A DNA stretch of 64,000 nucleotides from assembly GCA_965237685.1 (NCBI GenBank), contig CBDEGF010000004.1, forward strand, positions 3,743,496 to 3,807,495, written 5' to 3'. Both the position numbers and the translations under genes were made by a program. Each line of letters opens with the position of its first letter. Position 1 is the first letter of the stretch. The notes beneath the pieces were generated by a model. The model was given only the letters and a program-made list of their open reading frames with translations. It was not told where the DNA came from and did not search any database. Source of the DNA: Candidatus Marinacidobacterales bacterium (GTDB taxonomy: Bacteria > Acidobacteriota > Vicinamibacteria > Marinacidobacterales > SMYC01). Positions 8,056 to 64,000 of the stretch are shown piece by piece.

Positions 8056-9720
8056 ATGCGGACTCCACCAACGATCGAGCTAACGATGGAAGATCTGGAA
8101 ACCCTGCTCAAGCGTGCGAAGGCTTCCTTAGCGGAAGAGGACTACGAGAAGCTGGAGCTTTTGCGCAACGCCTATTTGACGCTGACGGATTTCATCGAAG
8201 ACGACCGGATGACGATTCGGAAACTGCGAGAGATGTTGTTCGGTCGAAGCACGGAAAAGACGAGCAAGGTTGTTGCCGAAGTGGAGGGCGAAACTCCACA
8301 GCTTCGCGGCGGGGAGAGTGGCGGGCCGAGCGAGGGTGACGAGCCAGACAAGAGCACCAAGCGGCGCAAGGCCAAGGGTCATGGTCGCAACGGCGCGGAC
8401 GCCTACCAGGGCGCGGATCGGATCCGTATCGCTCGCGATGAGCTGAAGCACGGGCAGCGGTGCCCGGAGTGCGAGACGGGCAAGGTCTATGCGAAGAAGC
8501 CGAAGGTGCTCGTGCGCATCACCGGCGAGCCTCCTCTGAGAGCGACGCTGTATGAGCTCGAGCGATTCCGATGCAACCTCTGCGGCGAGACCTTCACAGC
8601 GAGCGCCCCTGATGGCGTGGGTGAGGAGAAGTACGATGCCACCTCCGCGGCCATGATTGGACTGCTGAGGTACGGGAGCGGGCTTCCCTTCAATCGCCTG
8701 GAAGGCCTGCAGGGGTCCATGGGCATTCCCCTGCCGGCCTCGACCCAGTGGGATATCTCCACGACGCTGCCATTGAGCTCGAGCCCGTCTTCGAGGAGCT
8801 GATCCGGCAAGCGGCCGCTGGCGATGTGTTCTACAACGATGACACGGGTGTGAAGGTTCTTTCCCTCATGAACGTGCCGCCCGAGCCAGAGGATGGCGTC
8901 GCCGCCGAGCGCACCGGGCTCTTTACCTCAGGGATCGTTTCCACGAAGCAGGGGCGGAGGATCGCGCTTTTCTTCACCGGGCGCAAGCACGCAGGCGAGA
9001 ACCTCAGCCACGTTACTCGCTCAACGGGCTTCGGAGCTCCCTCCGCCGATCCAGATGTGCGATGCGCTTTCACGCAATCTTCCCAAGGAGTTCGAAACCA
9101 TCCTCTCAAACTGCCTTACGCATGGCCGCAGGTACTTCGTGAAGGTTGTGGAGAACTTCCCGCAAGAGTGCCTCTACGTGATTGAGGTGCTTGCCGAAGT
9201 GTACCGAATCGATGCTCTCGCTCGCGAGCGAGGGCTCTCGCCCGAGAAACGATTGCGCTTGCATCAGGCCGAGAGCGAACCGATTCTCAAAGAGCTCAAG
9301 GCTTGGTTCAAGGCGCAGCTTGCCGACAAGAAGGTGGAACCGAACTCAGGTCTTGGCGAGGCCATCCGTTACATGCTCAAACACTGGGACAAGCTCACCC
9401 GATTCCTGAGGGTGCCAGGCGCACCCCTCGACAATAATCTGCGCGAACGCGCATTGAAGAAAGCCATTCTGCATCGGAAGAACTCCCTGTTCTACAAGAC
9501 GAAAAACGGCGCCCGGGTCGGAGACATCTTCCTCAGCTTCATCCACACCGCCGAGCTCAACGGCGTCGATCCCTTCCACTACCTCACCGAGCTCATTCGA
9601 CATCGCGGCGAAATCCACGCGAACCCCGCGGACTGGCTGCCCTGGAACTACCGAGACACACTCGCTCGCGGCTCCAAAAACGAGCAGACGCACGCACGTC
9701 CCAAAGAAATCAGACCCTAA
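8056..9720 (+). pseudogene. tnpC: IS66 TnpC transposase, split over three frames
   Basis: ORF 8056..8802 has the N-terminal zinc finger (CPECETGKVY...FRCNLCGETF). ORF 8748..9185 has the DDE core (FYNDDTGVKVL). ORF 8893..9720 is the C-terminus (NNLRERALKKAILHRKNSLFYKT...). Two frameshifts, near 8760 and 9010. Confidence 0.75.
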
Positions 9721-30073: not shown

Positions 30074-30319
30074 CCTGCCGCCCCTTGCTACACAACACGC
30101 AGTAAGATAGGTTCACGTTTTCAATCAGTGGAAAGGAGGTCACCCAACACTTCATCGCTTCGATGAGCGTTCGGCTTCACCGGATTCGCTGTTCAGCTTG
30201 CTCTGGATTCGGCGTTCACGATGGCTGGAATACGCAGCAACCGCGCGGAAAATCTCACTCGTCTCTGCAGTGCCACAATTGGCCAGACTGGGTGGCGGAT
30301 GGTGCAGTCTGGAGCTATC

Positions 30320-30545
30320 CGGTCTTCACTGGAAACCACCAAAACAGGGAATTAACAGGGAATTTGGGCCATTTTTGTGCTGATTGGGCTGTTCTCTCAC
30401 GTGCTAACCTTCCAGGTTTCAAATAGTTAGCAGGCAATTCCCTGTTCTGCAAGAACAGGGAATTTGAGATGTTCGATCAGGGAATCGCTCTGGGACGAAC
30501 AGGCAATTGAGATGACCGATCAGGGAAGTGCCACGAGCAGCACAG
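30320..30545. repeat. non-coding block of short direct and inverted CAGGGAAT/AACAGGGAATTT repeats ending in an IS481-family terminus remnant (gcacaggacggg)
   Basis: aacagggaattaacagggaattt ... aattccctgttctgcaagaacagggaatttgag ... gatcagggaa x2. Resembles the multi-repeat end of an IS21-like element. Confidence 0.4.
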
Positions 30546-51442: not shown

Positions 51443-52626
51443 GCACTATCGCGTCCTGTGCCAAAACTCGGCCCTTTTGAAATAGGCCATAAATCAGCAG
51501 CTTAGTGTCTGTGTTTGCGCCGGGGCCAAGGGCCGTAGGCTTTACAATCGTCTGGCCCGAGGGTGTTATCTTCAGATCCATGATGACGTACCACGTGCAA
51601 TTCCTACTGCTCGTTCTAGCTGGCTGGGTCAACCGCCAGCAGCAGGATGTGATCGACTACCAGCAAGAGGAGAACCGTGTGCTCCGAGCCGGGCTTCGGG
51701 GCAAGCGTCTCAGTCTCTCGGACGACGAGCGGCGCAGGCTCGCGGTCAAGGCCCAGGCTTTGGGCCGCGAGGCGCTGGCCCAGATTGCGTCCGTTGCCAC
51801 ACCCGCTACGCTTCTGCGCTGGTACCGCCACCTCATCGCAGCCAAGTACGATGGCAGCAAGAACCGGAGTCCAGGCCGACCTCCGACGGCGAAGGACATC
51901 CGTGAGCTCATTGTGCGCGTGGCGCGGGAGAACCCGACGTGGGGATATACGCGCCTGCGAGGCGCACTCAAGAACCTAGGACATGAACTCGGACGCAACA
52001 CTATCAAGAGGATCCTCGCCGAGCACGGTATCGCTCCTGCGCCGGAGCGGGGCAGGAGCATGTCGTGGAGCACCTTCATCAAGGCTCATTGGGGCGCCAT
52101 CGCTGCGACAGACCTGTTCACCGTCGAGGTTGTGAACCCGTTCGGGCTCGTCCGCTACCATGTCCTGTTTGTCATCGATATCGCCACTCGCTGCGTGTGC
52201 ATCGGTGGGATAACGTCGGACCCCAACGGGGAGTGGATGAAGCAGGTGGCAAGAAACCTCACTGACATGTGGGATGGTTTCCTCCTTGGCAAGCGATACC
52301 TCATCCACGACCGGGACCCGCTATTCACCGAGGCGGTACGTGGGCTGTTGAGAGATTCAGGCGTGAAGCCCCTTCGCCTTCCCGCTAATAGTCCGAATCT
52401 GAACGCATATGCGGAAAGATTCGTTCTCTCCATACGTCGAGAGTGTCTCGACCGCTTCGTACCTCTCAGTGAGCGACACCTGCGCACAGCGGTAACCGAA
52501 TACGTAGTGCACTATCACACAGAACGGAACCACCAAGGTCTCGGCAACGAGCTCCTCACACCTCTGCCGGCAAGCGCGAATGACGCTGGCCCCATCGTGT
52601 CGCGAGAGCGACTTGGGGGCATTCTC
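51443..52626 (+). mobile_element. IS481-family element, copy 4, 3'-truncated at 52626 where an IS630 remnant begins
   Basis: Transposase 51505..52665. Identical to other copies up to ...GGILNYYC, then diverges (HDEQIRCP*) at the junction. Confidence 0.75.
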
Positions 52627-53480
52627 AACTACTACTGCCACGATGAGCAGATCCGTTGTCCATAATCCAGAATACTCGTCTGGCGTGTCGATAAGGGGTT
52701 CGCTTCATAATCATCTCGACGAGCCGATCGAAGGGTGCAATTCCATTGTTGGGTTCGCATCGGCCAAAGATCTTCATTCGGTGAACATCCACTGCGGCCA
52801 GGTACGCCCAGGCTCCGAGCCTTTCATACTCATGTTCTACTTTCATCGCCGACCCAGGGCGAGTCGGTATGGTCTCATGACGTCGATGGCGTGCTTGAAT
52901 GCTCGTTTTTTCGTCCGCACAGATCACGAATTCGTCTTCTCTGAGGGGCCGTCGCCTCCAACGCCGTTCGTACAAGTCAAGTATGGGCCCGGCTTTCGCG
53001 GCGAAGTTCGGATCCCTAGGGAAGACCCAAGAGCGATGTTGCCAGGGTCGGATGGCGTCCTCACTGAGCCAGCGCCAGATGGTGGTATTGCTGACGGACG
53101 CCACAAGCCCCGATTGACGCACATGGTCGGCGAGTTCGGAAGTGCTCCACCGCGACAGAGGTACTCCCAGTGTTGAGGGTAATTCGCAAGCGATGGCCTT
53201 GACCTCAACGACTACCTCTGGGGGGAAAAACCCGGGGACGCCCCAAGCGTTCCCGATCTTCCAGACCGGAAAGACGTTGGTCGAAGAACCTTTTGCGCCA
53301 CATGCTTACCACCTCACGTCGCGTGTTGAGGCGTTGCGCAATCTCGTCGTTGGCGAGACCCTGGGCGGCCAACAGAATCATTCGTGCACGGAGTACATGA
53401 AAATACGGCAACGTTATATTTCCGTGCCCTCCGCTGGAGCTCCAACTTCTCTTTTGGGCTCAATCGTATTTTATATGGGC
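52627..53480 (-). mobile_element. IS630-family remnant: HTH ORF (53205..53411) and DDE ORF (52625..53122) in different frames, 3'-truncated
   Basis: WVFPRDPNFAAKAGPILDLY...FVICADEKTSIQA...[11 protein letters not shown] is the DDE_3/IS630 pattern. ARMILLAAQGLANDEIAQRLNTRREVVSMWRKRF is the HTH. AT-rich left end, then an IS481-family end fragment at 53583-53637. Confidence 0.65.
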
Positions 53481-53774
53481 TGTGTCGAGGCATACTTGAT
53501 GCTCCGTTTCGCTGAGTATGTAGTCATCGCCTCGATATTGCAAATTAAATATACGTTAGTGTATTTAAGAAACCGCCTACTAAGTTGCTGATTTATGGCC
53601 TATTTCAAAAGGGCGAGTTTTGGCACAGGACGGGGTCAAAGCTAGCAGCTAGCGGGCTGACGCATCGTGCCAACGTGTCTTTGACCCCTCTAGGCAATCA
53701 TAGTAGTATGTTTTCTGCTCGTTCGGGCTTCTGCACCACGCAGCTTGGCGGTTAGTGACCCTCGAATCGAGGTC

Positions 53775-53869
53775 GGAGAGGTGCTGGAGTGGCTGATCAG
53801 GGCTGCCTGCTAAGCAGTTACACGGGTGATGAGCTTGTGTCGAGGGTTCGAATCCCTCCCTCTCCGCCA
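53775..53869 (+). tRNA. tRNA-Ser (anticodon GCT), type II with long variable arm
   Basis: Acceptor GGAGAGG/CCTCTCC. Anticodon arm GCTGC-CTGCTAA-GCAGT with U33 and GCT at 34-36. Long variable arm. T-arm GAGGG-TTCGAAT-CCCTC. Discriminator G plus encoded CCA (53867-53869). Folded by eye. Confidence 0.75.
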
Positions 53870-54160
53870 CCTAGTCTTGCCAATTGTGGCACTGCAGAGA
53901 CGCGTGAGAATTTCCGCGCGGTTGGCGGGGTTTTGCAAGGGTAGGTGGCACCAGAGACGCGCTAGAAGGGGTGAACTGGCCTCATTTTCGGGATTCGTCT
54001 CTAATCTCGATTTTCGAGTGCCAAGTTTGCGCCAAATAGGGGAGCGGGCGCTGACTGGGCCGAATGGTGGCGGAAAAAAGGCCACCTGAGAGGCCCGAAT
54101 CGAGGCCGGGGCTACCGTGGCGTAACTGGCATAGCAAGTTCTGGTCCAGTTGCGGCCTGG
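53860..54160 (+). repeat. about 290-bp direct repeat, copy A, starting at the 3' end of tRNA-Ser; copy B at 59500..59790 (about 90% identical); partial third copy at 30243-30310 (inverted, cut by IS21)
   Basis: CCAATTGTGGCACTGCAGAGACGNGTGAGANTTTCCGCGCNGTTGGCGGGGTTTTGCANGGGTAGGTG...CGAGGCCGGGGNTACCGTGGCGTA...GTTCTGGTCCAG is shared. The tRNA end tctccgccacc| parallels catccgccaccc| at the start of copy B. Confidence 0.65.
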
Positions 54161-54169
54161 GCCTCCTTT

Positions 54170-54491
54170 ATGTCCATCATTCCTCAGGCCTGGGTCCAGG
54201 TCCTTCGCCCGGGAGCATGGCATCCCGTTTCTGGACGTTTCCCTGAGCACTTGAAGGAGGCCAAAGTATTGATTGAAAGGTGGCGGCGAGAGTTCAATCG
54301 CTTCAGACCCCACAGCTCGTTAGGTTACCGACCGCCAGCTGACCGAGCTGCACCTTCAAAACACGCTTCTCCTCCTGCAGATACTCAAGGACCTTCTGCT
54401 GCTCCTGATTCAGCCAACCGGCCAGGAACGAAACCAGGGAGATTGGTGGCAAGACAAATGGGCTCATCGCAAGCATCTTAGCCGAAGTCAC
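54170..54491. other. convergent IS fragments: IS3/IS481-type transposase C-terminus (+, LKEAKVLIERWRREFNRFRPHSSLGYRPPA) and an IS481-type N-terminus (-, LAGWLNQEQQKVLEYLQEEKRVLK)
   Basis: Short motif-level matches only; both truncated. Confidence 0.4.
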
Positions 54492-56848: not shown

Positions 56849-57664
56849 CGGCCACTCCCCGATATCCAGTCACTGGCATCCCTGATCCCAGCTGGATAGA
56901 AAACGCAATTTGGGATACGCGCAGGACTCACAGCCAAACTTGACAACGGGCTCAGTCGTACCAACGTTGAGCCGACCTCTGAGCCGGTGCCACCTCCAGA
57001 GACTACCGCGTTTCATTCATTCGGGGTGGCCGTCAGATCGTGGAAAACTTGACAGCAATGGCACCGCCCGCGTGGGCGGAGGTCATCGGGGAGTGACCGA
57101 AATCGTTCGTTCACTCGAAAGTACCCGCACCGGCCCTGGGACGTAGTCTGGAAGCAGCCCGGCCCATGCGGAGCACGGCGATCTGCGCGAGGGTGTGAGA
57201 CTTCGATGAGCCGCGTCCGCCACGCGCCGATTTGTACCGCGCCGACCGGAGGAACGGCTTAGCCCACCTTGGGCTCGTCGCCCGGCCCAGGCCCGGGGCC
57301 GTCGGTTGCGCCGCCCTCGGCCGAATCGACTGGGTCGACGATTGCAATTTCGAATCGCTCCTTTAGCTCGCCCGAGTGCTCGATCCAACGCGCAAAGCCC
57401 TTCGCTCTCCGTTCGAGCCACCACAATGCGCCCTTAATCTCCGGGGTACGGTGCTCCATAGTAACTTCTGTTTATTTTCGTTCCGTCAAGAATCTTGCGA
57501 ACGTGCTTTGGCGTCGAGACAAAGCTCGTGCTGGGCGATTCACCGAAATCCGTCGACCGAACACTGAAACACTGTCATATTTGCCCCCGCAGATCTGGGC
57601 GCTCCAGGGTCCCGCCCGAGATGCCCCGCCGTCATACATCTCCTGCAGAAACAGCAACAACAGT

Positions 57665-58348
57665 TCAACCTATGCCGATCTGCTCGGGCGGGTTCGCGAT
57701 GATCTCCCGCAGCCTTGCCGCAGTCAGGTCGATCTCGTTCCTAAGTTTTTTCCTCACCACATTTTTTTTGGCGACTTTGAATTCTTCCTCTAGCTTCTCA
57801 AGTTTCGCCAGCAATTCTTGCTCTTGCGCGACCCAAAGATCGTAGACGACGTTCTCCTCCTTCGTCATAGGACCGACGATGCGCGCGGTGCCGACCCGCA
57901 GGTCGAGCTTGATATCATCGGGATGCGGCAGGAGCGGCTCGGCATCGGTGATGCCGAGCCGTTCACGGCGCTTGAGTTCCTCTTCCCCAGCGATTTTGTG
58001 GTCCATAGCTACTTGGACGAACTTGTCGCATATCTCCATCTTCTCTCGCTCGATCGAGGTCAGCATCTCGGTAAAGAGCCGTTGGGCGCGAGGCTTGCCC
58101 TTGGCGGCCTCGACGGCCAGTGAGCGGATGATTACCTGTGCAGTCGGCAGCGTAACGGTGCGGTCTCCGTCGCGGACGGTGATCGTGCGATAGGCTTCTT
58201 CGAGCACGATGGCCTTCAGCCGCTCTTCAGGCCGCACGGGCTTGCGGGACTTCGCGCCCTTCGGTCGGCCGCGCGGATTCCCGGACTGGCCCTTCTTGAA
58301 GCGGTGCGCCGTTGGTGGCTTGCCATAGCCGACCTCGTCCTGTGCCAA
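57665..58348 (-). CDS. DUF5681-like protein
   Basis: N-terminus MAQDEVGYGKPPTAHRFKKGQSGNPRGRPKGAKSRK is the characteristic DUF5681 opening, a family typically seen on plasmids, phages and ICEs. Coiled-coil C-terminus. Confidence 0.55.
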   Translation of the reverse strand: MAQDEVGYGKPPTAHRFKKGQSGNPRGRPKGAKSRKPVRPEERLKAIVLEEAYRTITVRDGDRTVTLPTAQVIIRSLAVEAAKGKPRAQRLFTEMLTSIEREKMEICDKFVQVAMDHKIAGEEELKRRERLGITDAEPLLPHPDDIKLDLRVGTARIVGPMTKEENVVYDLWVAQEQELLAKLEKLEEEFKVAKKNVVRKKLRNEIDLTAARLREIIANPPEQIGIG

Positions 58349-59372: not shown

Positions 59373-59499
59373 CAACTCATCAGGGCTTCTCTGAGTTTTC
59401 GCTACATTGCCCCAACCACGCGCACGGCCAAAAGTTCGATCCTGACTCCCAAAATTGCCAAAATACCTTTTGCCGAGACCGGATGGCTCGAGACTGCAC

Positions 59500-59790
59500 C
59501 ATCCGCCACCCAGTCTGGCCAATTGTGGCACTGCAGAGACGGGTGAGATTTTCCGCGCAGTTGGCGGGGTTTTGCAGGGGTAGGTGTCACCAGAGACGCG
59601 CTAGAAGAGCTGAACTGGCCTCATTTTCGGTTTTGGTCTCTAATCTCGATTTTCGAGTGCCACGTTTGCGCCCAAATAGGAGAACGGGCGCTGACCGGGC
59701 CGTGCGGCAGCGGAAAAGAGGCCACCCGAGAGGTCCAAAATCGAGGCCGGGGTTACCGTGGCGTAGCGGGCTAGCACGTTCTGGTCCAGG
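59500..59790 (+). repeat. about 290-bp direct repeat, copy B
   Basis: See copy A. Followed at 59800-59880 by a segment shared with 25880-25935. Confidence 0.65.
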
Positions 59791-60778
59791 TGTGCCTGAG
59801 CTTCATTGATGCCCTCACTTGCCTCGGATTTTGTATCAACAAGGATCCGGCAAGGCTTGAGAGCATCCCGTCCATCGTCGCTCTCCGGCCCGTTGTTGGT
59901 CGGCCTTTCTTAGGAAATCAGCCCTTCTGTCCAAATTGCAAGATTTTCCGCAACCCTCGGCTCAGGCCCGTTCGGCGCAAAGGAAACGCTTGCTAATGAC
60001 CACGCTGGAGCAGGAAGCCGCTGCCATTCCTACCACGCCAACCCGGTTCCGCATCGCCGCAGTTCCTCTCGGCGCCGCTCGTAGTCCCTCATAACCCGTC
60101 TCCGACGGCCTGCCAGTAGCCACGGCCGTAGCCGCGGCGTAGCGGACTAGCAACGTTGTGGCATCGTCGGGTCGACCGGTACGGAAGCCGATTGCGGCAG
60201 GTCTAAACCGCGCAATCAACGCCGGACCGACTTTTTGCGGAGCACAGGTGGAAATACTGCACGCTGTCGCCGCCTGGCCACCGACGCAATGACGTGCTGA
60301 ATAAAGAACGCGTTGTGCGCCGCAAGAAGCTAGGTGATCGGTGTCCTCATGACCGAGGATTCTAGCTTCCATTGACAAACCAAGCCTAAACACCTCTAAT
60401 CCGAAACGTCCCGGCGCGTCGGTCTTGAGTTCGTTTGTATTTTTGGACACGATGCCGTCAGGCAGTGGAAAACTTGACAGTACCGGCGTGACTGGCAAGC
60501 GCGTCGTGTCCTATCTTTCCCCAGGCCTGGATCCAGGTCTTCGCTCTGGGGGCGTGGCATCCCGTTGCTGCACGGTGTCATGCCGATGGCATCGGCTTGC
60601 TCCCGCAACGTCAACTAGTAAGAAACTCAGGGTGTAACGTTTGGGGGCAGTGACGTCAAAACCGAGCTTCCTCAGGCGTCGTGTTGAGCCGGTGCCACCT
60701 CCAGAGACTACCGCGTTTCATTCATTCGGGGTGGCCGTCAGGCCGTGGAAAACTTGACACTACCCCTCCATCGTCGCA

Positions 60779-62833
60779 CTAATCGACCCCCAGACTCTTG
60801 AACGCCGCATCTCCTGGATCCGAGTAGAAGCTGGTCTGAAATTTTGAAAACAATTCTCCAGGAATGGTCGGGATGTCCCCGACGCTCGCCATAGGAAGCA
60901 GGATTCTCTTCGCGCCGGCGTCAAATGCGACCTGAAGTGACCCGGCGAGATTTTCGACCGGAACGATGCTCCCACCGAGGCTCATACTCCCCAGCACGAC
61001 CATTTGTGATTGAACCGACTTACCGAGGATGCCGGAACAAAGAGCCACAAATGTTGCAAGCGTCATTGCCGCAGTCGGTCCTGTGTTTTGAAGTTCGACC
61101 ACATGCAAGTGAAAGTTGTGATCACCGGGTTTTACTGAGGCACTGACCGAAGAGGCATTAGCTTTGAAATAGTCGAAACCGACCTTAATACTTTCCTTTG
61201 CTGTGATATTGGACCCCACGCCGGATAATGTAAGCTTGCCGTTTCCGGCGGTGACCTGGGTCTCGATCCGGTAGACACCGAGGTGCCCACTACTACCAGT
61301 TGCGACGGTGTGAAGTACGCCAGGGTTGAGCGGGCTGTCAGGTATGAGGGCACCCCCTCCCTGCTCAGGAACGCTGATAAACCGTTCCTCCATCGGCTCC
61401 GGGGCGATGTAGGAAAAGTGGACATCATAAAACTCCATCCCACCAATCTTCTTTAACTGCTCTTTTACCCTTCGCCGTGTCTCGAGAGCGTATTCCAGGC
61501 AGCGCCGCACGGCTTCCTCATCGTACTCTTCGTTCGGGTACAGAAGCTTAAGCAGGCCAGAGACAGTGTGCCTGACCGCGATGGTGTCCCGCTGATTCAG
61601 ATCTCGGCCTAGCTTGAAGTATTTGTTGACCGCATCGCCGAAGTTCCGCTTGCGCATCTCGCGCAGGAACTCAGCCAGATAATCGACGATCAGCCCATAC
61701 TGGTTCGTGAAGAATTCCGGCCGCATCTTCGGGATCTCCCAGCCTGGAATATAGGCGTGGAAGCGGTCGAAGAATGCGGAGTCGATCATGGCCTCTGGAA
61801 ATGGAGCCAAGAGATGGCTTGTCTTGACCAACGTGTCTACAGGCTGGTTGATGTTGCCGACGAAGACCATCGACGCATAGGCGTTCACCTGGTCGCGACC
61901 TCGGGCGAACGATCCAGACGCCATATAGTCCTTCATGATCTGAACGCCAGCATTGTCCTTGAAGCTGATTCCGGCGACCTCGTCGAATGCCACTACATCC
62001 CAGAGCCCGACCAGCCCAACGGTTCGGCTGGCCAGGTTGTAAAACAGGTTCGCAACGGTAGTCTGCCCCCCGGAGACAAGGATGCTATTCGGACTGATTT
62101 CCTTATAGATATAGCTCTTTCCGGTTCCCCTCGGACCCAACGCGCAGACGTTGTAGTTGTTCTCCACCAGCGGTACTAGACGGCACAGCAGGTGCCACTT
62201 CGTGCGCTCATCGAACTGCGTTGGCTCATACCCGCAGGAACGCAACAACACATCAATCCACTGTGCCTCGGTAAACTGACGCCTCCCGGCGAACAGTTCG
62301 TCCATGTCCATGTTCGGCATCTGGATTGGATTGAGCTCATCGACAATGAAAGGCGACCCCTTTTGCCCCTCCTCATAAAAATATTGCGTCGTAATGATCG
62401 ACCAAATCCCGCCAACCAGTAACTTCTCGTATTTTCGGACTGTCTCCGTACCGATTCCGACGCCCTTCGTTCCCAGGTTCGACAAAAGCGCCTCGTAGAC
62501 ATCTCGTTTTTCATTCAGCGTGACCGTCACCTTATCGATAACCTTCAAACTGCCCCGCTCGCGGATGGTGGATTTCACCCTTTCTGCCTCGTCCGGCCGC
62601 ACGTAGTTCTCGGAGAGGATGCGCTTCACGGTAGCCAGACCGTCCTCGATCACGACTGGGTCATTGGAGGCACAGTAGTTACCAAGCAGGTACTCGAGGA
62701 CATAGACGGGAACGTTCGCGCCTTCCTTGACCAACTTGGTCAGGTCCTTGCGCACGACACGCCCCGTGAAATGCGCATTGAGCAGATCGTCGAGGCTGGG
62801 ATCGGTTGCGGCAGTCTCAGAAGTCGAAGTCAT
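60779..62833 (-). CDS. brxL: BREX system Lon protease-like protein BrxL
   Basis: 684 aa. The N-terminus FTGRVVRKDLTKLVKEGANVPVYVLEYLLGNYCASNDPVVIEDGLATVKRILSENYVRPDEAERVKSTIRERGSLKVIDKVTVTLNEKRDVYEA is the conserved BrxL opening. P-loop ALGPRGTGKSY. C-terminal Lon-like domain (…VVELQNTGPTAAMTLATFVALCSGILGK…VVLGSMSLGGSIVPVENLAGSLQVAFDAGAKRILLP). Confidence 0.85.
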   Translation of the reverse strand: MTSTSETAATDPSLDDLLNAHFTGRVVRKDLTKLVKEGANVPVYVLEYLLGNYCASNDPVVIEDGLATVKRILSENYVRPDEAERVKSTIRERGSLKVIDKVTVTLNEKRDVYEALLSNLGTKGVGIGTETVRKYEKLLVGGIWSIITTQYFYEEGQKGSPFIVDELNPIQMPNMDMDELFAGRRQFTEAQWIDVLLRSCGYEPTQFDERTKWHLLCRLVPLVENNYNVCALGPRGTGKSYIYKEISPNSILVSGGQTTVANLFYNLASRTVGLVGLWDVVAFDEVAGISFKDNAGVQIMKDYMASGSFARGRDQVNAYASMVFVGNINQPVDTLVKTSHLLAPFPEAMIDSAFFDRFHAYIPGWEIPKMRPEFFTNQYGLIVDYLAEFLREMRKRNFGDAVNKYFKLGRDLNQRDTIAVRHTVSGLLKLLYPNEEYDEEAVRRCLEYALETRRRVKEQLKKIGGMEFYDVHFSYIAPEPMEERFISVPEQGGGALIPDSPLNPGVLHTVATGSSGHLGVYRIETQVTAGNGKLTLSGVGSNITAKESIKVGFDYFKANASSVSASVKPGDHNFHLHVVELQNTGPTAAMTLATFVALCSGILGKSVQSQMVVLGSMSLGGSIVPVENLAGSLQVAFDAGAKRILLPMASVGDIPTIPGELFSKFQTSFYSDPGDAAFKSLGVD

Positions 62834-62874
62834 CGATAATTGCTCTGTCGATAATAACGTCTAGGCTCGCCTGC

Positions 62875-63423
62875 TCAATGCCGGTGTCGGCATCCCGGAG
62901 AACCAGCCTGTATGGCGTACGTTTGTCGTATGGTCTGTCTCGCAGGGTGGGGTAAGTTCGTGGATGCTGAGCTACCCGAGAAGTGGGCTATCGATGGCAT
63001 CCAGAACCAGTACGCATTCTTCGACCGACGGGTAGCTGGACAAGTTTGGGCAGTACGCATCTGATCCGTGGATCTTGGTGGCAAGAAGTCCAGGACGAAG
63101 GAGTCATTGGCGCTCGCATGACGGAGCAGTTGCAGCACTGCGTCGGCTACGTCACCCTCCGAGTCCTGACGAACGGTGACCGGATCAAGGTCTAATTTCC
63201 CGATCCTTCCAGCCGAGACCATGCTGAGAATGTGTCGCTGCGCCTCAATGTGCCCTGGCTGGGAAGGACGCAGCGCATTCTGCATCACACTCAGCGCAAT
63301 AAGGGTGTTTTGTGGCACCCGTATCGGGGAGAGCTCAGCTTCGATAAGTGGCAACAATTTGAAGTGCGCGGCGTTCAGAATGGCCGTGACATCCGCATTG
63401 AGCCGCCACTTTTGACTTGGCAC
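62875..63423 (-). pseudogene. disrupted ORF immediately upstream of brxL; possible C-terminal remnant of the preceding BREX gene (pglZ)
   Basis: 182-aa ORF whose last about 30 aa look out of frame. A separate 57-aa frame (...RLVLRDADTGIEQASLDVIIDRAIIDDFDF*) ends in a TGA that overlaps the brxL ATG by 20 nt, typical operon coupling. No long minus-strand ORF between 62834 and 64000. Confidence 0.3.
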
Positions 63424-63482
63424 TACTGGTAGTGAACCGGTGATCCTGCCTCCGAACCGTTGGTTGACAGGACAGGGATAGC

Positions 63483-63971
63483 ATGCGGATTGTGGGTACC
63501 GTTGACCTGCTTAGCTGGCTCAGAGACACTGGGAAAATGTCGCCCGCTGATTTCGCGCAAGCGCTCAATGATATGCGGGCAGCAGACGTACGGTTCGTTG
63601 CGTTCGATGCGGACGAACTTGTTGCCGCGTTACGCGAGGCTCCGATTGAAAACGGCACACTGGTTGAGACTAAAACTCTACGTGTGCTGCGACAGTACTA
63701 CGCACGGTGTTTGCTCGAAGCGGATATACTCCGTCCTCCGCCGGGGGACAAGGAAGCGCTCAACACAGCAACAGAGTGGCATTTCCTCTTTGGCTGTGGC
63801 CTCGCTGTTGTGAAAGCCATGGTCAAGGTCTGGGAAATTGGCCCAAGCGATCGTGCGGTCGAGCAAGCCGAGTGGCTGCTAAACAACATGTATACGGACG
63901 TCGCGGTTTTCATGGGACTGCCGCACCACGGACAGAAGCCAAAGATGCATATCTTGCGAGCGCGTCGCTGA
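63483..63971 (+). CDS. hypothetical protein (162 aa)
   Basis: ATG at 63483 and coherent composition (MRIVGTVDLLSWLRDTGKMSPADFAQALNDMRAADVRFVAFDADELVAALREAPIENGTLVETKTLRVLRQYYARCLLEADIL...). The antisense ORFs here look spurious. Confidence 0.4.
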   Translation: MRIVGTVDLLSWLRDTGKMSPADFAQALNDMRAADVRFVAFDADELVAALREAPIENGTLVETKTLRVLRQYYARCLLEADILRPPPGDKEALNTATEWHFLFGCGLAVVKAMVKVWEIGPSDRAVEQAEWLLNNMYTDVAVFMGLPHHGQKPKMHILRARR

Positions 63972-64000
63972 CAAATTTGATCGTGGGCTCAATGCGCCTG

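Follow-up and report, generated by a model that had tools for sequence, protein, structure and literature searches.

The brxL gene considered here occupies positions 60779..62833 on the minus strand of the window, the 64,000-nucleotide stretch of DNA that was analysed. It is an intact open reading frame of 684 codons, uninterrupted by stop codons or frameshifts, and its product combines a BrxL_N domain, an MCM-like AAA+ ATPase and an inactive Lon-like C-terminal domain. Membership of the BrxL family is established over the full length of the protein and above curated cutoffs: residues 13-683 cover positions 3-674 of the 675-position TIGR02653 profile at 1160.6 bits (cutoff 628.25); the Pfam domains BrxL_N (PF20442), BrxL_ATPase (PF13337) and Lon_C (PF05362) score 161.9, 482.1 and 57.4 bits, respectively; and PADLOC assigns PDLC02506 at 1114.8 bits. 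The full-length brxL described in a first, sequence-only reading of this DNA thus stands. The core ATPase motifs are whole, with Walker A (GPRGTGKS) at residues 233-240 and the Walker B glutamate at E285 (VAFDEVAG), the equivalent of E280 in Acinetobacter BrxL. Comparison with 96 full-length homologs finds six residues that occur in no other sequence. The substitutions E231A and H241Y flank Walker A; they are absent from all 95 other full-length close homologs and from 8EMC, the solved Acinetobacter BrxL having E and H at these positions.

Ordinarily brxL is the last gene of its operon and directly follows an overlapping pglZ. In the window, the 1.2 kb upstream of brxL consists instead of four pieces whose orientation alternates. 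The first is a 3' remnant of pglZ (62817..62948, minus strand): the last 43 codons and the stop codon, identical (100%, tblastn) to PglZ residues 829-871; its 17-nt overlap with the brxL start is precisely that of intact operons. A 57-residue frame had been singled out here as the probable 3' end of a former upstream gene; its last 43 residues are indeed the PglZ C-terminus, but the frame is a 56-residue stop-to-stop stretch with no ATG, and it overlaps brxL by 17 nt rather than 20. Abutting this remnant, and inverted relative to it, lies an 87-bp internal pglZ fragment (62948..63034, plus strand; residues ~433-462 of 871), which matches positions 8731-8817 of the sister contig L008 at 100% identity in reverse orientation. 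A promoter-like element, TTGAGC-16-TATTAT, is found 18 nt 5' of the brxL ATG, within the retained pglZ remnant; in a promoter and terminator scan around brxL, matches were no commoner than the chance rate.

The two remaining pieces come from a gene of a giant HTH/double-PIN family of PF24407-containing proteins, ~1,700-2,200 amino acids long. Fragment 1 (63036..63471, minus strand) corresponds to residues ~848-998 of P0262 (tblastn: 48% identity over 151 amino acids, E 2e-38) and is 85% identical in nucleotide sequence to L013 8951-9386. Fragment 2, inverted relative to it (plus strand, 63469..64000 and past the window to ~64549), corresponds to residues ~1166-1478 of P0262 and carries near 63900 a frameshift, possibly a long-read sequencing error at the contig coverage of 9.43x, through which P0126 reads. 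L098 is 99.1% identical to fragment 2 at the nucleotide level and continues upstream where the window breaks. The two open reading frames reported earlier for this interval both exist. The body of the 182-residue minus-strand ORF (62875..63423) is fragment 1; the 162-residue plus-strand ORF (63483..63971), which had been taken for a plausible gene, is the first reading frame of fragment 2, truncated on the 5' side, disrupted by the frameshift on the 3' side and equivalent to residues ~1166-1306 of the family. Membership of this family calls for the PF24407 HTH, followed by a conserved region of ~300 residues, in one long ORF. Neither the HTH nor the N-terminal 847 residues are represented in the window fragments, which point in opposite directions, are frameshifted and by themselves match nothing in Pfam. 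They are gene remnants, and no member gene of the family is present.

Beyond the window edge the contig runs through the remainder of this pseudogene into tRNA-Gln (~1 kb past the window end) and hemY-like, hemE-like, TPR and two-component genes, and the gene calls there include neither pglZ nor any other BREX gene; the proposal that brxL stands without a BREX operon around it is borne out where an adjoining pglZ might have overturned it. Type 1 BREX is characterised by phage restriction and by m6A methylation, dependent on PglX, at a non-palindromic motif of 6 bp, and its six genes, brxA, brxB, brxC, pglX, pglZ and brxL, are not found together at this locus. A tblastn search with the sister BrxA, BrxB, BrxC, PglX and PglZ proteins over the 64-kb window and ~8 kb beyond it, ~72 kb of a 4-Mb genome, returned only the two pglZ scraps and one marginal BrxA match. 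The latter, at ~34.7 kb, extends over 30 residues at 60% identity in the N-terminal extension of one sister's 300-residue BrxA call; copies of a multi-copy IS1-like element surround it, and it was rejected as a BREX remnant. A 272-residue gene beside brxA in the sisters, with matches at 14.5-15.2 kb and 34.3-34.9 kb, was likewise rejected as a marker of the cassette edge because it carries an IS1-like transposase C-terminal signature and is multi-copy.

What the locus once held is indicated by the sister contigs. Complete brxA-brxB-brxC-pglX-pglZ-brxL operons, that is, type 1 operons, are present in L008-L011 and L096/L097, and also in L005; in the sister cassettes brxL is followed by a non-coding tail of ~1.4 kb and then by a large serine recombinase gene. 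These intact cassettes, which are flanked by IS copies, surround BrxL copies of 93-98% amino acid identity; in some low-coverage sister contigs pglX or pglZ is split, possibly through error. Over 2,439 bp (L001 9886-12324), made up of the final 132 nt of pglZ, the brxL gene and a further 269 nt in the tail, the window is 98.1-98.3% identical to the intact sisters. Homology to the sister operons (blastn) sets in at window 62948 (L001 9886), and the 98% colinear block thus starts 115 nt 5' of the brxL ATG, abutting the inverted 87-bp pglZ piece.

Downstream, the cassette can be followed further. The non-coding tail (60510..60778, minus strand) lies directly 3' of brxL, belongs to the 2,439-bp block and is colinear with the sisters; colinearity with L008-L011 is then interrupted by an insertion of ~696 bp (59814..60509, unstranded), made of dispersed repeats with further copies elsewhere in the window, and the tail resumes at 59378..59813 (minus strand; 90% identical to the sisters). 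In place of the intact Resolvase and Recombinase gene found downstream of brxL in L008 and L010 there is a remnant of ~100 nt (57468..57566, plus strand) encoding 33 residues and matching recombinase residues 439-469 (tblastn 64% identity, E 2e-4; blastn 86% over 56 nt). A second, diverged copy of the cassette tail (53863..54237, minus strand; 86.5%) abuts the 3' end of tRNA-Ser(GCT) (53775..53869, plus strand), which with tRNA-Gln brackets a brxL segment of ~11 kb; Rfam finds nothing besides these two tRNAs in the 22-kb locus. A 45-bp direct repeat bracketing the segment was considered as an attachment site and set aside as a dispersed hairpin-type repeat because it recurs a third time, at window 30294-30326. 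Several intact ORFs of no assigned function are also present downstream, beside a solo IS end. The description of this side as pure IS debris is therefore right only in part: the cassette's own tail, dispersed repeats, the solo IS end and the recombinase remnant are accompanied there by these intact ORFs. Searches of the neighbouring ORFs against Pfam, NCBIfam, PADLOC and PHROGs gave nothing but DUF5681/phrog_26239 for a 227-residue ORF, and no candidate partner gene flanks brxL. The suggestion that brxL works in a non-canonical partnership finds no counterpart in neighbours that are gene fragments upstream and, downstream, ORFs that match no defence family.

The window brxL is very probably what is left of a type 1 BREX cassette lost in a local rearrangement, with no new role. 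The earlier view that BREX was erased by rearrangement, leaving brxL intact, is upheld by the 98% identical sister DNA that carries the whole operon where the window retains only scraps of pglZ. Since the sisters hold the full cassette and a giant gene nearby, the window locus can be read as a collapsed copy of that neighbourhood, with the qualification that the sister contigs sit at other chromosomal sites and the ancestral arrangement is reconstructed from them. The ancestor would have been a mobile type 1 BREX cassette with, as in at least one sister, a giant HTH/double-PIN gene upstream in divergent orientation. That sister is L097, where the family member is a 593-residue ORF related at the protein-family level only; a nucleotide search with the window fragments over the 9 kb upstream of brxA in L096/L097 gave no match. 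The comparison shows that in the window's genome one complex event, or a few, took out the whole stretch between the interior of the giant gene and pglZ codon 828, with it 10.9 kb or more of coding DNA from BREX, and that two short pieces of the lost interval were kept, each inverted, with their left-to-right order unchanged. Most of the recombinase gene was lost separately, and repeats were inserted into the cassette tail.

How the DNA was lost is best judged from the three junctions (J1-J3) at window 62948, 63035 and 63470, which lie within 523 bp of one another. It had been proposed that insertion sequences erased the system, by deletion or inversion between IS copies or by adjacent deletions during transposition, and the surroundings give that proposal a basis: one IS inverted-repeat core occurs 11 times in the window, which also contains several further transposase fragments, IS copies flank the sister cassettes, a solo IS end and repeat insertions lie downstream of brxL, and the brxL of L094 has itself received an insertion with a target-site duplication. 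At the junctions themselves, however, none of the three coincides with an IS end or repeat; each joins unique sequence to unique sequence through 1-3 nt of microhomology. Moreover, the pieces are inverted yet in order, a result that one IS-mediated inversion or deletion does not yield, and on the same geometry, two kept pieces each inverted in unchanged order, the idea that the scar arose by one inversion together with a deletion was rejected. The IS proposal is therefore unlikely for this scar, full of IS copies as the genome is; we infer that the junctions are better accounted for by microhomology-mediated template switching, or by illegitimate recombination in series, than by IS transposition.

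That the patchwork might be an artefact, a chimeric consensus from a mixed-strain long-read metagenome whose real genome carries an intact BREX, deserves consideration at 9.43x coverage, the more so as the same metagenome contains a second BREX-bearing contig (L003) and split pglX or pglZ genes in several low-coverage sister contigs may be errors. Identical BrxL and 162-residue proteins are nevertheless recorded on two contigs, of 646 kb and 4.0 Mb; housekeeping genes are colinear on both sides in the contig; three precise junctions within 523 bp, accompanied by kept pieces of 100% identity, are atypical of consensus error; L098 independently bears out the giant-gene sequence as far as the breakpoint, at 99.1% identity; and independent decay states occur in other samples. 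An artefact is accordingly improbable in the extreme.

With the locus read as the relic of a lost cassette, there remains the question of why brxL is intact. Over its first 1,491 nt it is 99.5% identical to copies in intact operons, so the loss of its BREX partners appears to be recent; if it is, the intactness of the ORF probably reflects too little time to decay and not selection. Pairwise dN/dS against the sisters is 0.11-0.17, a value indicating that purifying selection acted through most of the history of brxL and pooling the time before and after the deletion. Of the private changes that lie outside an imported recombination tract, five are non-synonymous and two synonymous, a ratio that agrees with neutrality and would be unlikely at omega 0.12 (p = 0.02, exploratory); these changes and the unique residues are weak hints that constraint on brxL may have relaxed.

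Among metagenomic loci, a full pglZ lies upstream of brxL in 65 of 66 (63 abutting, 2 at ~500 nt), and brxL is an orphan in none or one. One locus (L058) is no more than a possible second orphan, because an ORF with an HExxH motif occupies its 668 nt of upstream sequence. A decayed version of the same cassette is seen in L094/L095, whose truncated brxL is interrupted by an insertion of 1,041 bp accompanied by an 8-bp duplication; it is an independent, later state of decay. A synteny scan of reference genomes with the hemY-like flanking gene gave one match, 31% identical, in a Planctomycetaceae MAG, and no syntenic site.

BrxL is an ATP-dependent DNA-binding AAA+ ring, hexameric or heptameric on DNA, and deletion of brxL or mutation of Walker B (E280, essential for restriction in the Acinetobacter protein) abolishes restriction, an effect described only within the full operon (PMC10164562); the Lon domain is inactive (PMC12839542). 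A single transcript that begins 5' of pglZ covers both pglZ and brxL in Salmonella, where premature termination within pglZ reduces brxL transcription (PMC9009780). By this precedent the orphan gene would be without the region that holds the pglZ-brxL promoter in studied systems, and its translational coupling to pglZ would be gone. Because a full BREX system is the only setting in which BrxL is known to work, the orphan most likely contributes no longer to phage defence, and any protein still made would be a ring that binds DNA in an ATP-dependent manner but has no partners left. One might argue that the gene has been retained for a function, in trans with a BREX or BREX-like system elsewhere or alone on prophage and host transcription, pointing to its intact ORF and Walker motifs, its low overall dN/dS, the promoter-like site just upstream, the change in host and prophage transcription brought about by over-expression of a C-terminal fragment of Salmonella BrxL alone (PMC9009780) and the differing requirement for BrxL among BREX systems (PMC12839542). 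Against this, no BREX partner was found within 72 kb, the adjoining sequences comprise pseudogene fragments and ORFs that match no defence family, orphans are rare, the other partner-less copies seen are all broken, near-identity to intact-operon copies explains intactness with no appeal to selection, the unique substitutions flank Walker A, and a standalone role is not reported in the cited BREX literature. Retention for function is thus very doubtful. Still less credible is the bolder notion that a lone BrxL ring would be useful by itself, binding DNA and dampening or sensing prophages or mobile elements, or serve as a spare part re-arming brxL-less BREX cassettes, with E231A and H241Y then adaptive to partner-free activity.

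The locus is taken as an ordinary relic of defence-system decay, probably a recent one. It carries little weight beyond annotation, as a clean, base-by-base example of BREX cassette decay seen next to intact and more degraded versions of a 98% identical cassette in other metagenomes. It cautions that a lone brxL match is not to be counted as a defence system. Two by-products may be of more use: a BrxL allele, rare and 'isolated' by nature, whose residues next to the ATP site are unusual and which could be tested for function, and the uncharacterised giant HTH/double-PIN family, which adjoins BREX and other defence genes.

Set beside known systems, the window protein shares the three-part architecture and length of Acinetobacter sp. 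BrxL (PDB 8EMC/8EMH): residues 3-679 of 8EMC align with 8-684 of the window protein end to end and gap-free (1109 bits), and both Walker motifs are conserved. Its Lon-like domain lacks the context of the Lon catalytic serine, as does the 'inactive LonP' of PMC12839542. The difference from the type 1 Acinetobacter system is that neither pglZ nor any other BREX gene precedes brxL here. Whereas the intact sister cassettes comprise six BREX genes, a gene for a 553-residue serine recombinase and a DUF2924 gene, the window retains only brxL, two scraps of pglZ and a 33-codon recombinase remnant. Partial BREX loci are present in natural populations, Ca. Regnicoccus frigidus having truncated pglX and brxL and a variable pglZ-brxL (PMC9716671); like this population and L094/L095, the window exemplifies partial BREX sets arising by deletion, insertion and truncation. 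In those two cases brxL was truncated or lost along with pglZ, whereas in the window brxL alone survives intact.

The gene that remains at this locus is a complete brxL. It occupies 60779-62833 on the minus strand as a 684-codon ORF whose product matches the BrxL equivalog profile TIGR02653 from end to end (1160.6 bits, cutoff 628; residues 13-683 correspond to profile positions 3-674/675), matches BrxL_N, BrxL_ATPase and Lon_C in Pfam, and is also labeled BrxL by PADLOC; the sequence-only reading had rightly called it full-length. Residues 8-684 align without a gap with residues 3-679 of the solved Acinetobacter BrxL (8EMC), and both the Walker A motif (GPRGTGKS, 233-240) and the Walker B glutamate (E285, the counterpart of Acinetobacter E280) are kept. 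The identical protein is on record on two contigs, of 646 kb and 4.0 Mb.

BrxL homologs number in the thousands, the best 120 being 92-98% identical, and the close full-length relatives with fetched context (L002-L005 and L008-L011) all lie in canonical type 1 operons in which the pglZ stop overlaps the brxL start by 17 nt. The whole cassette and its upstream flank, reached through a BrxC query (P0141) in two sister loci (L096 and L097), has the order brxA-brxB-brxC-pglX-pglZ-brxL, followed by a ~1.4 kb non-coding tail, the gene of a 553-aa large serine recombinase and a DUF2924 gene; judging by its outer flanks, which vary between genomes, the cassette is mobile. In three sisters pglX is called as two ORFs (L002 3812-10017, L003 3709-7402, L004 2675-6282), with pglZ also split in L002, which may be real methyltransferase inactivation, as reported for BREX elsewhere, or error in low-coverage long-read contigs. 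Among 66 metagenomic brxL loci (72-85% amino acid identity, each reaching 600 nt or more upstream), pglZ abuts brxL in 63; two have a small inserted gene and then a full pglZ, and in the last (L058) an ORF with an HExxH motif fills the available 668 nt. A truly orphan brxL is thus rare (0-1 in 66).

An ordinary operon cut by the window edge would continue with an intact pglZ and the other BREX genes just past that edge. The fetched locus L001, spanning 10 kb either side of brxL (subtracting a window coordinate from 72834 gives the L001 coordinate), has there instead the remainder of a pseudogene, tRNA-Gln (L001 7771-7844), a hemY-like oxidase gene, hemE, and genes for a TPR protein and a sigma-54 response regulator and kinase, with no pglZ or other BREX gene. 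Across the 64-kb window and L001 (~72 kb of genome), tblastn with BrxA, BrxB, BrxC, PglX and PglZ of sister cassettes yielded, beyond scraps of pglZ, one marginal match only, to 30 residues of a BrxA N-terminal extension at ~34.7 kb, inside IS-related sequence. Truncation by the window edge alone thus does not account for the missing operon.

The window shares with its sisters a 2,439-bp block of 98.1-98.3% identity (blastn; L001 9886-12324) that begins just 115 nt before the ATG of brxL, and the 1.2 kb upstream of brxL consists of four pieces joined in alternating orientation. The first (62817-62948, minus strand) is the 3' end of pglZ, its last 43 codons and stop, with 100% amino acid identity; it is the short frame earlier said to end 20 nt over the brxL start, which exists but overlaps by 17 nt. 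The second (62948-63034, plus strand) is an inverted, 100% identical 87-bp internal piece of pglZ (~residues 433-462). The third (63036-63471, minus strand) corresponds to residues 848-998 of P0262, a giant HTH/double-PIN-family protein (E 2e-38; 85% nucleotide identity to L013 8951-9386), and forms the body of the 182-aa ORF seen previously, whose "scrambled end" arises where the frame runs on into the pglZ scraps. The fourth (63469-~64549, plus strand) corresponds to P0262 residues 1166-1478, with a frameshift near 63900. The plus-strand ORF at 63483-63971 does exist but is not the plausible gene it was taken for: it is a 162-aa fragment of the giant gene, frameshifted and broken upstream, because the related protein P0126, from another contig, reads uninterrupted across the frameshift, and L098, 99.1% identical to the fourth piece, carries on upstream past the break, which makes that breakpoint real.

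The giant proteins are mostly 1,700-2,200 aa long (880 matches at E ≤ 1e-3 and 52 at E ≤ 1e-30 in a sensitive search), carry PF24407, "HTH upstream of double PIN", at ~residue 800, and were not found in PADLOC. Family loci (window 63036-64000, on to ~64549; L097 199-1980; L013 6764-12958; L012 6912-7820) adjoin BREX in L097, GmrSD and OLD-like genes in L012 and a SIR2+DUF4020 gene in L013; the giant protein may be an uncharacterised conflict-system protein. In L097, where BREX is intact, the strand opposite brxA has, 5.7 kb upstream of that gene, a 593-aa ORF truncated by the end of the contig; this ORF aligns to P0262 residues 114-690 (48% identity, E 2e-178). One sister therefore has a giant-family member upstream of BREX and in divergent orientation to it. 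The window keeps this relative orientation, the C-terminal part of the giant gene being directed away from brxL.

Compared with that sister, the window locus reads as a collapsed version of the giant gene and BREX neighborhood. The loss takes in giant-gene residues 1-1165 apart from 848-998, the genes in between, and everything from brxA to pglZ codon 828; its BREX share comes to 10.9 kb (L096 8702-19649). Erasure of BREX with brxL left behind, one of the two explanations offered at the outset, is supported by sisters that carry the full cassette and a window that has only pglZ scraps and brxL; its attribution to IS elements is not, for the three junctions (62948, 63035 and 63470) share 1-3 nt of microhomology and none coincides with an IS end. 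One inversion plus one deletion is ruled out as the origin of the scar, since each of the two internal pieces that survive is inverted, yet their left-to-right order is still the ancestral one. Repeated template switching, or a minimum of three separate illegitimate recombination events, could have produced it.

Downstream, the cassette tail runs on for 269 nt, is interrupted by ~696 bp of dispersed repeats (59814-60509) and resumes at 90% identity (59378-59813). An ORF of 242 aa comes next, followed by a solo IS inverted repeat, a DUF5681/phrog_26239 gene and what remains of the serine recombinase gene, 33 codons at 57468-57566. Further out lie a duplicated 75-bp tail piece, three ORFs, a second copy of the tail, diverged and adjoining tRNA-Ser, and a complete IS. 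"Pure IS debris" thus describes this region only in part. The other initial explanation, a non-canonical partnership of brxL, is unsupported: none of these ORFs has a defence-family match in profile searches that included Pfam and PADLOC, and none is found again beside brxL in sisters.

The DUF5681 gene (57665-58348, minus strand; PF18932/phrog_26239, a phage-associated family) is intact, encodes 227 aa and starts inside the solo inverted repeat. The second tail copy (53863-54237, 86.5% identical) abuts the tRNA-Ser 3' end and the 75-bp piece (56980-57054) lies 3.7 kb from brxL; together they may be an old integration flank. The genome is unusually IS-rich: one IS with an rve_3 transposase, whose ends are shared with sister contigs, has 11 inverted-repeat core copies in 64 kb (18776, 20139, 23509, 25958, 27321, 31973, 42786, 43619, 51471, 53587 and 58355; complete copy 51452-53614), and IS1-like and other transposase fragments also occur. 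An intergenic ~45-bp repeat with a 7-bp inverted repeat (CGGATGG...CCATCCG; 59475-59507, 30294-30326 and L001 7895-7939) probably represents a dispersed element of the hairpin or terminator type.

BrxL is an ATP-dependent AAA+ ring encircling DNA, and an operon complete in all other respects loses restriction when brxL is deleted or carries E280Q (PMC10164562); the protein, whose Lon domain is inactive, is seen as a helicase-like accessory of PglZ-centred machinery (PMC12839542). In Salmonella a single transcript that starts upstream of pglZ covers both pglZ and brxL, and brxL transcription drops when termination occurs prematurely within pglZ (PMC9009780). The region upstream of pglZ and the pglZ-brxL translational coupling are both missing here, and the sole minus-strand promoter-like match (62878-62851) is at chance level. 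An over-expressed C-terminal fragment of Salmonella BrxL alone changed host and prophage transcription (PMC9009780), an observation that leaves some small room for activity of a lone BrxL.

The intactness of brxL needs no selective explanation, because it is near-identical to copies in intact operons. Pairwise dN/dS against sisters is 0.11-0.17. Private substitutions cluster, 22 of 29 falling within codons 498-588 (p = 3e-14), which marks these 273 nt (61070-61342) as an imported recombination tract, by its look a gene conversion from an unsampled allele. The tract is 91% identical to sisters, against 98-99.5% for the remainder of the gene and 99.1-99.5% for nt 1-1491, and its nearest match, at 93.8%, is the broken brxL of L094/L095. 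The private changes outside the tract, 5 non-synonymous and 2 synonymous, fit neutrality and are unlikely at an omega of 0.12 (p = 0.02, a post hoc value from tiny numbers). Six residues are unique to this BrxL among 96 full-length homologs (median homolog 0, maximum 11), two of which, E231A and H241Y, flank Walker A, where Acinetobacter BrxL has E and H. These private changes and unique residues are at most hints of relaxed constraint on the orphan.

Other states of decay are found in L094 (8537-11521) and L095 (8518-11521), whose copies of this cassette are 98% identical: the first 122 nt of brxL are missing, an insertion of 1,041 bp bordered by an 8-bp duplication divides what is left of the gene, and upstream there is an inverted pglX-like gene but no pglZ. 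The window locus is one stage of a common erosion process; partial BREX loci also occur in an Antarctic cyanobacterial population (PMC9716671). By these sequence comparisons, the orphan brxL encodes a protein already known and stands in a situation of a known kind, as a relic left by the turnover of defence islands.
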